A DNA stretch of 47,670 bases from a virus. Its lineage: Duplodnaviria; Heunggongvirae; Uroviricota; Caudoviricetes. The stretch lies in IMG/VR virus record IMGVR_UViG_2627853701_000003. One strand, 5' to 3'. This document shows positions 14,246 through 18,465 of the stretch, in pieces (position 1 is the stretch's first letter; the number at the start of each line of letters is the position of its first letter). The notes under the pieces are model-generated. The model saw only the letters and a list, made by a program, of their open reading frames with translations, made no database searches and was not told the origin of the DNA. Made by a program: the position numbers and the translations under genes.

Positions 14246-14312
14246 TGAAACAGGTGAGTTGAGTTCAAACTGTAGTACAATTCTCTCCAGTTTGAACAGG
14301 AAAGAATATTCT

Positions 14313-14645
14313 ATGAACCCTTATATTTATCTTGGTGGTGCAATACTTGCAGAGGTCATTGGTACAACCTTAATGAAGTTTTCAGAAGGTTTTACACGGT
14401 TATGGCCATCTGTTGGTACAATTATTTGTTATTGTGCATCATTCTGGTTATTAGCTCAGACGCTGGCTTATATTCCTACAGGGATTGCTTATGCTATCTG
14501 GTCAGGAGTCGGTATTGTCCTGATTAGCTTACTGTCATGGGGACTTTTCGGCCAACGGCTGGACCTGCCAGCCATTATAGGCATGATGTTGATTTGTGCC
14601 GGTGTGTTGGTTATTAATTTATTGTCACGAAGCACACCACATTAA
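14313..14645 (+). CDS. emrE: SMR-family multidrug efflux transporter EmrE
   Basis: 110 aa from ATG 14313: MNPYIYLGGAILAEVIGTTLMKFSEGFTRLWPSVGTIICYCASFWLLAQTLAYIPTGIAYAIWSGVGIV... matches E. coli EmrE; the track ORF has a likely non-ATG upstream extension. Confidence 0.9.
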   Translation: MNPYIYLGGAILAEVIGTTLMKFSEGFTRLWPSVGTIICYCASFWLLAQTLAYIPTGIAYAIWSGVGIVLISLLSWGLFGQRLDLPAIIGMMLICAGVLVINLLSRSTPH

Positions 14646-14901
14646 AAATAATTTGTTTCTAAACGACTAAAATATGGAGGTTCTTATATTTATATGAGCC
14701 TCGTTTTATGCTTTTTGTTAATGTCTTTATTTTTTTATGTATTCTTTTGTGCTTTCAAGATTATGGCGTAAGAAAATTGCAATACGATTATTGTTGTATA
14801 TTCAAGATAATGTGATCTTAATTGTCTTTTTAAATAAAAATTAAACAAAAATTATATCCCACCACTAAGGTTTATAAAAGCATACGTTAGCAGGTGTCAC
14901 C

Positions 14902-16428
14902 ATGAAAAAAGCCATAGCATATATGCGATTTTCATCACCAGGTCAGATGTCTGGCGACTCATTAAACCGACAGAGAAGACTTATTGCTGAATGGTTAAAG
15001 GTAAATAGTGATTATTATCTTGATACCATAACATATGAAGATTTAGGATTAAGTGCATTCAAAGGAAAGCATGCACAATCAGGAGCTTTTTCGGAATTTT
15101 TAGATGCTATAGAGCATGGTTATATATTGCCAGGAACTACATTGTTAGTTGAAAGTCTGGACAGACTTTCAAGAGAAAAAGTCGGTGAAGCGATTGAACG
15201 TCTGAAATTGATTTTGAATCACGGTATTGATGTTATAACTCTTTGCGACAATACAGTCTATAATATTGACTCTTTGAATGAGCCATATTCATTAATAAAA
15301 GCCATACTTATAGCACAAAGGGCAAATGAAGAAAGCGAGATAAAGTCAAGTCGGGTTAAATTATCATGGAAGAAAAAACGGCAGGATGCACTGGAATCAG
15401 GTACGATTATGACGGCGTCTTGTCCGAGATGGCTCTCCTTAGATGACAAAAGAACGGCTTTTGTTCCAGACCCCGACAGGGTGAAAACTATTGAGCTAAT
15501 TTTTAAACTCAGGATGGAAAGGCGCTCATTGAATGCAATAGCCAAGTATTTAAATGATCATGCTGTAAAGAATTTCTCAGGAAAAGAAAGTGCATGGGGA
15601 CCTTCTGTAATTGAAAAATTATTAGCGAATAAAGCTCTGATAGGTATATGCGTACCTTCATATCGTGCAAGAGGGAAAGGGATAAGTGAAATCGCTGGCT
15701 ATTATCCCAGAGTCATATCAGATGATTTGTTTTACGCTGTACAGGAAATTCGGTTGGCACCTTTTGGTATTAGCAATAGTAGCAAGAATCCTATGCTAAT
15801 AAATCTACTTCGAACAGTTATGAAGTGTGAGGCTTGTGGTAATACCATGATTGTTCATGCGGTATCTGGAAGTTTGCATGGCTATTATGTTTGTCCGATG
15901 AGAAGATTACATCGATGTGACAGGCCATCAATAAAAAGAGATTTGGTTGATTATAATATCATTAATGAATTGCTTTTTAATTGTAGCAAAATTCAACCAG
16001 TTGAAAACAAGAAAGATGCTAATGAAACTTTAGAGTTAAAAATTATTGAGCTTCAGATGAAAATTAATAATTTAATCGTTGCATTGTCTGTCGCGCCTGA
16101 AGTTACCGCTATAGCAGAGAAAATAAGACTATTAGATAAGGAATTACGAAGGGCTTCGGTATCATTGAAAACTTTGAAGAGTAAAGGTGTAAATTCATTC
16201 AGTGATTTTTATGCTATTGACTTAACCAGTAAAAATGGACGAGAGTTATGCCGTACACTTGCCTATAAAACATTCGAAAAAATCATAATTAATACGGATA
16301 ATAAAACCTGTGATATCTATTTTATGAATGGCATTGTTTTTAAACACTATCCTTTAATGAAAGTAATATCTGCCCAGCAGGCGATAAGTGCTCTCAAATA
16401 TATGGTTGATGGTGAGATTTATTTCTAA
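14902..16428 (+). CDS. ybcK: large serine recombinase (YbcK-like)
   Basis: 508-aa ATG ORF; N-terminal resolvase-type catalytic region (AYMRFSSPGQ); AT-rich gene and flanks; same position as ybcK in DLP12. Confidence 0.75.
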   Translation: MKKAIAYMRFSSPGQMSGDSLNRQRRLIAEWLKVNSDYYLDTITYEDLGLSAFKGKHAQSGAFSEFLDAIEHGYILPGTTLLVESLDRLSREKVGEAIERLKLILNHGIDVITLCDNTVYNIDSLNEPYSLIKAILIAQRANEESEIKSSRVKLSWKKKRQDALESGTIMTASCPRWLSLDDKRTAFVPDPDRVKTIELIFKLRMERRSLNAIAKYLNDHAVKNFSGKESAWGPSVIEKLLANKALIGICVPSYRARGKGISEIAGYYPRVISDDLFYAVQEIRLAPFGISNSSKNPMLINLLRTVMKCEACGNTMIVHAVSGSLHGYYVCPMRRLHRCDRPSIKRDLVDYNIINELLFNCSKIQPVENKKDANETLELKIIELQMKINNLIVALSVAPEVTAIAEKIRLLDKELRRASVSLKTLKSKGVNSFSDFYAIDLTSKNGRELCRTLAYKTFEKIIINTDNKTCDIYFMNGIVFKHYPLMKVISAQQAISALKYMVDGEIYF

Positions 16429-16892
16429 ATAATGATCTCGGATTTTAAGTTATGCTATGATGATAAAGTGCAAGACAGAATTAATTATCTTTAACGAAAC
16501 TTAATGGGTAATTACTTTGTTTGCTCCCACAAGCGAGTTTTGTACGGCTGTATTGGGGTAGTAAATGAGCTATACAATCTTAATCATTTGTTAGGTGAGA
16601 ACTCTTGGTCGCAGATTCAAATACTGAAAATACGTGACAAATTATTATGAGCAAAATGGTGTATGTCACGTATTTTGAATGGTAGGTTAAAAAATAACAC
16701 CGACTTTCGTAGGTATTACTAATAATAAAGCAGAGTTTTTAGATAGTATCAATGTGCTTTGTGTATATTGTGGCAAATAATTGGGTTGGGGGTACAATTG
16801 TGATTGCTTTTGCATGAACATTGCGCCTTTATGCATAATGAGATAAAGGAATATCAAATAAAATAACGATAGGTCATAACAAAGAGGTTTTT

Positions 16893-17444
16893 ATGAAAAC
16901 ACTTATCGTTTCAACTGTATTGGCATTCATAACATTTTCTGCGCAGGCTGCAGCATTTCAGGTCGCTAGTAATGAAATAAAAACAGGAGAGCAACTTACA
17001 ACGTCTCATGTCTTTTCTGGATTTGGGTGTGAAGGTGGTAATACATCGCCCTCATTAACCTGGTCTGGTGTTCCTGAAGGTACCAAAAGCTTTGCCGTAA
17101 CTGTATATGATCCAGATGCACCTACAGGCAGTGGTTGGTGGCATTGGACTGTTGTTAATATTCCAGCAACAGTAACATATTTGCCCGTTGATGCAGGGAG
17201 ACGTGATGGAACAAAACTGCCGACTGGTGCTGTTCAAGGCCGAAATGATTTTGGCTATGCTGGGTTTGGTGGCGCATGTCCTCCTAAAGGAGATAAACCA
17301 CATCATTACCAGTTTAAAGTATGGGCTCTAAAAACTGAAAAGATTCCTGTAGATTCTAACTCCAGCGGAGCGTTAGTTGGTTATATGCTTAATGCTAATA
17401 AAATCGCAACCGCTGAGATAACACCAGTTTATGAGATAAAGTAG
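16893..17444 (+). CDS. ybcL: periplasmic PEBP/Raf-kinase-inhibitor-like protein (YbcL-like)
   Basis: 183-aa ORF with a signal peptide (MKTLIVSTVLAFITFSAQA) and PEBP-like motifs (YDPDAP ... HHYQF). Confidence 0.75.
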   Translation: MKTLIVSTVLAFITFSAQAAAFQVASNEIKTGEQLTTSHVFSGFGCEGGNTSPSLTWSGVPEGTKSFAVTVYDPDAPTGSGWWHWTVVNIPATVTYLPVDAGRRDGTKLPTGAVQGRNDFGYAGFGGACPPKGDKPHHYQFKVWALKTEKIPVDSNSSGALVGYMLNANKIATAEITPVYEIK

Positions 17445-17453
17445 GGTGAGAGT

Positions 17454-18251
17454 ATGCTGGCAAGAGGTAAGACTAACTTAAAGATCGAAGAAATACGGAT
17501 GCATAAACATCATGAGATTCATAGGGTTAAGCCTCTTATGCCAGCTTTGTGTCGTATCCGTCAGGGAAAGAAAGTTATCAATTGGGAGACGCATACTTTA
17601 ACTGTTGATAATAATCAAATAATATTATTTCCTTGTGGTTATGAATTTTATATTGAGAATTATCCTGAAGCAGGGCTTTATCTTGCAGAAATGCTTTACT
17701 TACCCATTGATTTAATTGAGAGTTTCCAAAAGCTTTATACGGTAACTGATCAAATACGTAACAAAACAAGTTTCTTTTTACCTCAGAATCCTGAGTTAAT
17801 ATATTGTTGGGAGCAACTAAAAACATCTGTTTCCCGAGGCTTCTCAACTAAAATTCAGGAGCACTTAGCAATGGGCGTTCTACTTTCGTTAGGAGTGAAT
17901 CATGTTAATCATTTACTTTTATCATATAGTAAACAATCATTGATAAGTCGTTGTTATAACCTGCTGCTATCCGAACCCGGCACAAAATGGACAGCAAACA
18001 AGGTTGCTCGATATCTCTACATTTCTGTTTCTACATTACATCGCCGTCTAGCAAGCGAGGGGGTAAGTTTCCAAAGTATACTGGACGATGTGAGGTTAAA
18101 TAATGCGTTGTCTGCTATACAAACGACGGTAAAACCTATAAGCGAGATTGCCAGAGAAAATGGTTATAAGTGTCCTTCGCGTTTTACTGAAAGATTTCAT
18201 AATCGTTTTAATATAACACCAAGAGAGATAAGAAAAGCTTCCAGAGAGTAA
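17454..18251 (+). CDS. ybcM: AraC-family transcriptional regulator (YbcM-like)
   Basis: 265-aa ORF with a C-terminal AraC-type HTH region ([35 protein letters not shown]..); AT-rich. Confidence 0.75.
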
Positions 18252-18465
18252 AAGTGTTTTAAGAAGGAGCAATTCTATCGATTTTGATTTTGGGAAATCA
18301 ACACGGCATAATTATGTCACCGGAGCCTGAACAACTCCGGTGACTTCTGCGCTAAACGGGGACGTTTATGCGCACATACAATCCAAACTCTCTTCTCCCT
18401 TCACAGATGCAGAAATGCACCTGCAATTCTTTGCATCTAGCGTTTGACCTCTGCGGAGGTGAAGC

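Follow-up and report, generated by a model that had tools for sequence, protein, structure and literature searches.

Whether a serine recombinase gene carried in the middle of a prophage mobilizes the genes beside it is the question raised by IMG/VR virus record IMGVR_UViG_2627853701_000003 (Caudoviricetes), a 47,670-nucleotide (nt) stretch of DNA (hereafter referred to as the window). Between the phage genes ren and ybcN, the window carries a block (positions 14246 to 18460) with the genes for the efflux pump EmrE, the large serine recombinase YbcK, the PEBP-like protein YbcL and the AraC-family regulator YbcM. An initial annotation of the sequence took this block for cargo, in the form of a nested mobile or invertible module. 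Here we report a comparison of the block with related prophages, with Escherichia coli genomes and with YbcK relatives in other genera. The comparison reveals that the block is composite: an invariant emrE–ybcK unit is followed by one allele of a multi-allelic cassette, here ybcLM. We consider it probable that a hypervariable accessory (moron or defence) slot is currently occupied by this block, and that the cassettes in it are exchanged by phage mosaicism and not by YbcK.

The conserved flanks of the block enclose quite different genes in other prophages. Block-less prophages share the O and P/ren genes on one side and the ybcN–ninE–ybcO–rusA–ylcG–Q genes on the other, and carry between them an MT-A70 methylase pseudogene with phosphoribosyltransferase-like and NADAR genes, P22AR-C with HEPN, or IS5 with DUF4041 and P22AR-C. 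In prophages that have ren and lack the block, homology to the window stops at 14209 to 14218, within the last ren codons, and the right-side homology of ybcK-less prophages starts at 18282, 18296 or 18356. Moron or accessory cargo is a dispensable insert between conserved phage genes that deviates in composition and gives way to other genes in relatives, and the block fits this description. The different slot genes within the same flanks, together with the foreign composition, thus support the view of the initial annotation that the block is cargo rather than phage core, and the comparison that it had suggested, with lambdoid prophages lacking the block, yielded these insertion boundaries. 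A vertically conserved block of uniform composition, which would have argued otherwise, is not what we found, as the block is not uniformly conserved.

Linkage was analysed in 5,426 E. coli genomes, in which the ybcK module (14654 to 16437) was scored at a coverage of at least 80%. The module is present in 1,399 genomes, ren, emrE and ybcK are contiguous in 1,398 and ren and emrE are contiguous in 1,392; because these counts nearly coincide, ren–emrE–ylcJ–ybcK is one invariant unit. The occurrence of the 300-base pair (bp) segment that follows (16438 to 16737) is narrower: it is confined to 674 genomes, those in which ybcLM comes after ybcK. The block and its neighbours are laid out as follows.

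13943–14245: ren, the left neighbour of the block.
14219–14245, plus strand: left block boundary, within the last ren codons, just past the positions at which the homology of ren-bearing prophages without the block ends.
14313–14645, plus strand: emrE, small multidrug resistance (SMR) efflux transporter, 110 residues (Pfam Multi_Drug_Res, E = 3e-35; NCBIfam SMR_efflux_EmrE).
14646–14901, plus strand: AT-rich leader of ybcK, GC 0.26, with the annotated small open reading frame (ORF) ylcJ, frameshifted here, at about 14694–14844.
14902–16428, plus strand: ybcK, intact large serine recombinase, 508 residues (Pfam Resolvase, Recombinase and Zn_ribbon_recom).
16429–16498, plus strand: 3′ flank that travels with ybcK; the invariant emrE–ybcK unit ends at 16498.
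16499–16737, strand undefined: orphan non-coding junction segment with a perfect 13-nt inverted repeat.
16738–16892, plus strand: region upstream of the ybcLM operon.
16893–17444, plus strand: ybcL, periplasmic PEBP/Raf-kinase-inhibitor-like protein, 183 residues (Pfam PBP).
17454–18251, plus strand: ybcM, AraC-family regulator, 265 residues (Pfam HTH_18 and HTH_AraC).
18282–18469, plus strand: right boundary and conserved linker, with a hairpin at 18317–18343 and a small ORF at 18368–18469 that overlaps the ybcN start.
18466–18921: ybcN, the right neighbour of the block.

The position 3′ of ybcK varies between prophages. Among 84 ybcK-bearing loci examined in detail (80 IMG/VR contigs and 4 genome loci), BLAST homology 3′ of ybcK breaks off at 16437, 16469 or 16498; on visual inspection, the diverged cargo alleles can still be aligned up to ...AACGAA(A/G)C at 16498. 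Homology of the other cargo alleles to the window resumes at 18282 to 18284, and in one of them at 18296. The cassette position between 16437/16498 and 18282–18284 holds at least ten alleles of 310–2584 bp, among them, besides ybcLM, alleles with a BstA defence gene (PADLOC E = 4e-121), with a BD-FAE-type esterase, with a 5′-truncated P22AR-C gene followed by unknown genes, and with an IS2 insertion. Two viable temperate phage isolates have the block, PhiR34_1 in full and Lambda_4A7 (Bievrevirus) as emrE–ybcK followed by an esterase gene. Prophages that lack ybcK share the right boundary at 18282, so cassettes can turn over without YbcK. With or without ybcK, turnover of the slot leaves sharp boundaries at gene ends, as lambdoid mosaicism does, and no dedicated recombinase is required. 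The linker preceding ybcN (hairpin and small ORF) is doubled in two ybcK-less prophages, where it forms 100–140-bp direct repeats that flank cassettes (L079, 3705–3842; L080, 4119–4222; compared with window 18305–18445), and this doubling is likely to be a substrate for cassette gain and loss by homologous recombination. A candidate for a clean split of a P22AR-like gene by the emrE–ybcK unit was rejected, since homology to the full-length gene begins about 100 nt past the ybcK flank, which fits deletion or replacement instead of precise insertion.

In the model suggested by these relationships, the slot is part of the early-right operon of a DLP12-type lambdoid prophage, with ren on its left and the hairpin/small-ORF/ybcN linker on its right. 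Unit A (about 14219/14236 to 16498; emrE, ylcJ and ybcK) is inherited whole, attached to ren, and unit B (16499 to 18281) is one cassette allele, made up of the 240-bp orphan segment and the ybcLM operon with its own upstream region. We infer that homologous or illegitimate recombination, acting at the conserved flanks and repeated linkers, exchanges the cassettes without YbcK, and that ybcK was captured, or inserted once, beside emrE, probably in a single event.

The composition of the block agrees with a foreign origin of its contents. It is the lowest-GC 4.2 kb of the window (GC 0.367, versus 0.525 elsewhere in the window); just 0.3% of all 4215-bp intervals are equally low, with the minimum at 14101. 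GC at third codon positions is 0.26–0.35 in the four cargo genes and 0.52–0.59 in ren, ybcN and ninE–rusA, and the two spacers have a GC content of 0.26 (14646–14901) and 0.32–0.33 (16429–16892). Between ren and ybcN, the gene order is emrE, ybcK, ybcL, ybcM, with all four ORFs at the positions previously assigned; a longer emrE ORF with a TTG start begins at 14259. The ORFs, domains and GC content thus bear out the initial description of an AT-rich block with an efflux pump, a 508-residue serine recombinase, a PEBP protein and an AraC regulator. The identity that it proposed with the block in DLP12 of E. coli K-12 was also correct: the whole block is 99.6% identical to that of K-12 derivatives, with the DLP12 gene set emrE–ylcJ–ybcK–ybcL–ybcM (99.7% for the MG1655 ybcK segment), and the window is 100% identical to an annotated prophage adjoining mlrA in E. 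coli O157:H7 JEONG-1266. The block is therefore already known as an annotated DLP12-type (K-12) and O157 prophage cargo region.

We next consider the recombinase itself. By its catalytic domain, recombinase domain and zinc ribbon, YbcK classifies as a large serine recombinase (LSR), that is, a serine integrase, with matches to PF00239 (Resolvase, E = 5.5e-19), PF07508 (Recombinase) and PF13408 (Zn_ribbon_recom). A single-sequence search of the PDB with YbcK found no solved structure at E ≤ 0.001 and the family profile was needed; this profile aligns to residues 37–318 of the A118 integrase, spanning the recombinase domain (RD), zinc-ribbon domain (ZD) and coiled coil, and to SPbeta SprA. Residues R9, S11 (the nucleophilic serine), D87, R88, R91, C309, C312, C331 and C339 are invariant in 19 homologs, and the catalytic R9, S11, D87, R88 and R91 are kept in all 51 intact E. 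coli alleles. A loss of catalytic residues, named beforehand as evidence against a recombinase module, is accordingly not seen, and the four zinc-ribbon cysteines are kept as well. The gene is intact in 83 of the 84 E. coli copies, and its ratio of non-synonymous to synonymous divergence (dN/dS) is 0.06–0.09 (about 0.07) at synonymous divergence (dS) up to 0.18, compared with 0.10–0.19 for ren and 0.09–0.13 for ybcN. Because purifying selection is this strong, ybcK does something; the protein is under selection, is no relic and presumably works, and in our model it would be a functional large serine recombinase akin to island and prophage integrases. The literature searched for YbcK contains reports on expression and tolerance and none on recombination activity.

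An intact recombinase could invert a neighbouring segment as an expression switch, in the manner of Gin, Cin or Pin. A serine recombinase is present, and so is a perfect 13-nt palindrome within 16627–16676. YbcK is, on the other hand, a 508-residue protein of the integrase type with RD, ZD and coiled coil and not an invertase of about 190 residues, no inverted-repeat pair brackets any segment, and the whole block is colinear on one strand in 670 of the 674 genomes with the junction segment, as are all 84 loci examined. Such an invertible module is therefore extremely improbable.

Evidence for movement of ybcK within E. coli was also sought, and none was obtained. In the 5,426 genomes, ybcK has no second genomic context: no genome has more than two copies, and all of these occupy lambdoid prophage slots. 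It shows no presence/absence polymorphism in the prophage context; the only ybcK-less emrE–ybcL junction is that of a decayed, 9–10% diverged copy at the fliE locus, described below. Searches of IMG/VR and JGI metagenome contigs returned no exact-pattern match to an empty site or circle junction and 29 matches to the occupied left junction; these searches assume the junction positions and demand exact matches. A repeat search across 14100–18600, as proposed for recombinase targets in the flanks, found no notable direct or inverted repeats bracketing the block or its parts, the best pairs being 72–87% identical over 15–25 nt and located in coding DNA. Inspection of the sequence for att-like half-site pairs at 14653/4, 16437–16498, 16737/8 and 18282, a weak test, found none that was convincing, and neither a recombination directionality factor nor att sites were identified for YbcK. 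An 18-nt direct repeat at 14220 and 16493 is situated close to two boundaries, a coincidence with an estimated chance of roughly 3%; an alignment with a block-less ren prophage does not support it as a target duplication, and it was set aside. With one context, no flanking repeats, colinear copies and no empty-site or circle junction, the proposal of a nested mobile or invertible module finds no support in E. coli, although these negative results are real but not strong.

Full-length YbcK homologs (36–61% identity) occur across Enterobacterales, and the contexts of some of them suggest mobility. In one clade (36–39% identity), the recombinase gene opens, on the left, islands of 7–11 kb and low GC (0.36–0.45). 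Such islands split hofB in Serratia, Mixta, Leclercia and Rahnella, with positions 3–242 of the T2SSE profile on one side and 239–370 on the other, and have AbiTii, Shedu and a small resolvase among their genes (L021–L023 and L025; about 9,900–17,300 in L022). They are 77–96% identical between genera, versus 67–81% for the compared host flanks where these can be aligned. The same island type lies near cmoA or aspS in other genera, and island hosts overall also include Erwinia and Klebsiella. A conserved CTTATGATA(A/C)ACT motif about 45–60 nt upstream of the recombinase start is confined to this clade and absent from E. coli ybcK; the upstream-motif search found nothing common to E. coli ybcK and its relatives, and one leader common to the Edaphovirga and Yersinia relatives only. 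Relatives at 50–56% identity lie at prophage/host borders in Citrobacter and Yersinia.

By analogy with the hofB-splitting islands, the whole block might be a single island borne by its serine recombinase, with the genes 3′ of ybcK as island cargo. The uniformly low GC3 of all four genes would fit, as would the variable cargo that follows directly after the LSR stop codon in the islands of relatives (GC 0.36–0.45). Yet emrE lies upstream of ybcK, whereas in the islands no gene precedes the LSR, which lies about 60 bp from the junction; the right boundary at 18282 recurs in ybcK-less prophages; and the conserved right-end genes of the islands (a small resolvase and ORFs of 187 and 86 residues) are not in the block. 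We regard this origin as improbable.

A copy of the cargo also occurs elsewhere in the chromosome. In approximately 2,600–2,700 E. coli genomes, the best match to the block is a 90–95% identical emrE–ybcL–ybcM copy without ybcK; in the one locus examined in detail (L002, 7988–11846, NZ_CP195356), it sits between fliE and yedK. Its homology covers 14236–14653 and then directly 16738–18468 (89.7% identity over 16738–18468), so that a 2,084-bp segment (14654–16737; ylcJ, ybcK and about 300 bp) is missing, and the 155-bp region upstream of ybcLM (16738–16892) accompanies the operon. After 18468, the copy jumps to the 3′ end of quuD, which encodes a Q-like antiterminator, and a DLP12-type porin gene, a part that is 86–91% identical to the three DLP12-type prophages compared. 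Because of this jump, the fliE-locus copy is recognized as a decayed DLP12-like prophage: of its genes, the cargo (emrE, ybcL, ybcM and porin) was kept, and the stretch of phage genes between ybcN and quuD is gone. Some fliE-locus copies contain an IS200/IS605 tnpA gene.

Several observations weigh against the accessory-slot reading and suggest a more active part for the recombinase. The ybcK-less junction of the fliE-locus copy (14653|16738) is sharp, with about four unmatched bases and AT-rich microhomology only. In Pantoea, two loci with unrelated contexts (L013, 9778–11583; L030, 9780–11583) have in common only a 1,808-bp segment, 94% identical, which consists of the LSR gene alone, preceded by 223 bp and followed by 56 bp. 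At least two recombinase copies, with different left flanks, are present in Edaphovirga cremea, on contigs broken inside the gene (L033/L063/L020). The closest relatives (48–60% identity) also lie in the P–nin region of lambdoid phages, in Atlantibacter and Pantoea and in a further run of unknown origin; from this position, a function linked to phages or directed at the slot may be suspected. As ybcK is under strong purifying selection, its product does something, so that a recombinase role nearby is possible. Finally, serine-recombinase att sites are imperfect palindromes of 40–50 bp without long repeats and with little sequence signature, for which reason the negative repeat search is weak evidence.

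Such observations can be combined into a nested element, in which 14654–16737 is a minimal LSR-only cassette that entered an ancestral prophage, by site-specific integration, between emrE and ybcLM. All ybcK prophages would descend from this event, and the fliE-locus copy would represent the empty state. Besides the fliE junction and the Pantoea and Edaphovirga loci, this is favoured by a left homology boundary that in each lineage lies 60–250 bp upstream of the LSR start, and by partial duplicates of phage genes around the LSR: in L163, the LSR and small cargo lie between 229-bp direct repeats of the DUF1367 5′ end (7623–7851 and 10609–10831; 82.5% identity), and in L030 between a full P gene and a 75%-identical fragment of the P 3′ end (9281–9657 and 12216–12592). 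It is at odds with the lack of presence/absence polymorphism or a second context in the 5,426 genomes, with the absence of empty-site or circle junctions against 29 occupied ones, and with the lack of att-like inverted half-sites at either junction. Moreover, the fliE-locus copy is decayed and has also lost ybcN to quuD, which makes a deletion of ybcK equally likely, and similar flanking duplications surround the recombinase-less cassettes of L079 and L080. We therefore consider a solo-recombinase insertion into the E. coli prophage rather unlikely. The YbcK family as a whole includes mobile members, some of them perhaps very small, and the 1.8-kb segment of Pantoea and Edaphovirga could be a minimal mobile element with a serine recombinase only.

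A related proposal, which we put forward tentatively and hold to be the less likely course, is that YbcK is an active recombinase kept by temperate lambdoid phages for a separate purpose. It might serve as a second route of integration or recombination during infection, or as the 'transposase' of LSR-only Enterobacterales elements of 1.8–2.1 kb that target phage early-right regions and other mobile DNA, the E. coli copy being long resident and functional.

The AT-rich spacers, which had contributed to the idea of a nested module, have more ordinary explanations. In K-12, the untranslated region upstream of ybcK is reported to be a Rho/NusG-dependent terminator, 'tybcK', that keeps ybcK off (PMC4150792), and in our model YbcK would be silent in the K-12 lysogen through this Rho-dependent termination in the AT-rich leader. 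The proximal approximately 130 nt of the leader are nearly invariant among nine alleles with ybcK dS up to 0.18. The region at 16738–16892 corresponds to the ybcLM upstream region bound by YbcM. Because the spacers have these reported K-12 roles, as terminator or leader and as ybcLM promoter region, they count against a recombinase module. The orphan segment contains the perfect inverted repeat (16627–16639, AAAATACGTGACA; 16664–16676, TGTCACGTATTTT), which with its 24-nt spacer forms a 50-bp palindromic site. The minus strand of this repeat holds the best promoter-like match of the region. A scan of the block for promoter and terminator consensus sequences performed no better than shuffles, with 17 promoter-like sites versus 16.3 expected, and an Rfam scan of the block, including the orphan segment, gave no match.

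The other cargo proteins belong to well-defined families. EmrE scores 239.6 bits on NCBIfam SMR_efflux_EmrE (cut-off 226) over residues 1–110 of 110, and emrE has a dN/dS of 0.02 against the fliE-locus allele. YbcL matches PF01161 (PBP/PEBP; E = 3e-42) and the NCBIfam equivalog PRK09818 (399 bits, cut-off 277), and its N terminus, MKTLIVSTVLAFITFSAQA|A, resembles a Sec signal as judged by eye. YbcM matches PF12833 (HTH_18; 61.5 bits, cut-off 33.6) over residues 185–261, and HTH_AraC, and thus has the double helix-turn-helix of AraC/XylS regulators at its C terminus. Chromatin immunoprecipitation with exonuclease digestion (ChIP-exo) in K-12 placed a YbcM site upstream of ybcLM, indicating autoregulation, and other bound regions at ucpA and ubiT, and survival of H2O2 was 8-fold lower in a K-12 ybcM deletion (PMC8464067). 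A PADLOC scan gave no defence-family match for YbcK, YbcL or YbcM.

Elsewhere in the window, gene P is split into 11932–12201 and 13509–13946 by an IS3-family element that is annotated as IS1203 and has its orfA/orfB on the minus strand (12241–13454). As P is a replication gene, the window prophage is probably replication-defective. A second low-GC stretch (about 7500–9500, GC 0.36–0.40), from kil to a cI-like repressor gene, contains an ASCH-domain gene and a gene for a 353-residue hypothetical protein. The related prophage L078 has a SIR2 gene just past its repressor gene, on the same side, so that this stretch looks like another cargo slot. In the late region (20835–22302), Q is followed by three tRNA genes (CAT, Arg-TCG and Arg-TCT) and then by a large DUF6645 gene, a layout that we take to resemble Stx-phage late regions; no stx-sized ORFs lie between the tRNA genes and 21598.

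The initial description of the block re-describes an annotated region of K-12 DLP12 and O157 prophages; the comparison adds a precise map of the slot, with an invariant emrE–ybcK unit and a position with at least ten cargo alleles. It further shows that the emrE–ybcLM–porin genes beside fliE, present in roughly half of all E. coli genomes, derive from the cargo of a DLP12-like prophage that has decayed, and it flags YbcK, still only a 'predicted recombinase' of a model organism, as strongly conserved. An active YbcK would give E. coli a native serine integrase, possibly the core of a very small mobile element, of interest to phage biologists and genome engineers.

A comparison with known systems places the block among them. 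It most resembles that of DLP12 in K-12 (b0543–b0546 region), where gene content and gene order between ren and ybcN agree with the window and nucleotide identity is about 99.6%. Functions or structures have been published for the EmrE, YbcL and YbcM proteins of K-12, and YbcK is listed there only as a 'predicted recombinase'. Unlike DLP12, the window prophage is a fuller, 47-kb lambdoid element adjoining mlrA in O157:H7; it has IS1203 in gene P, where DLP12 has IS3 in ren, and its ylcJ is frameshifted. Lambdoid nin and early-right hotspots, such as those with BstA cassettes, share with the block a foreign composition, a location between conserved phage genes, sharp gene-end boundaries, many alleles, with a known defence gene among them, and repeated linkers, but in about a quarter of E. 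coli genomes a fixed emrE–ybcK unit precedes the variable cassette. Serine integrases of the A118, SPbeta SprA, TP901-1, Bxb1 and phiC31 type share with YbcK the catalytic Ser, Arg and Asp residues, the recombinase domain and the zinc ribbon with coiled coil, whereas ybcK occupies a mid-prophage position, and the prophage encodes a tyrosine integrase of its own. The defence islands adjacent to hofB, cmoA and aspS, for which we know of no name, resemble the block in their full-length recombinase of the same family (36–39% identity), low GC and variable cargo 3′ of the recombinase, but there the recombinase gene is the edge gene of a 7–11-kb element that splits a host gene, as shown for hofB.

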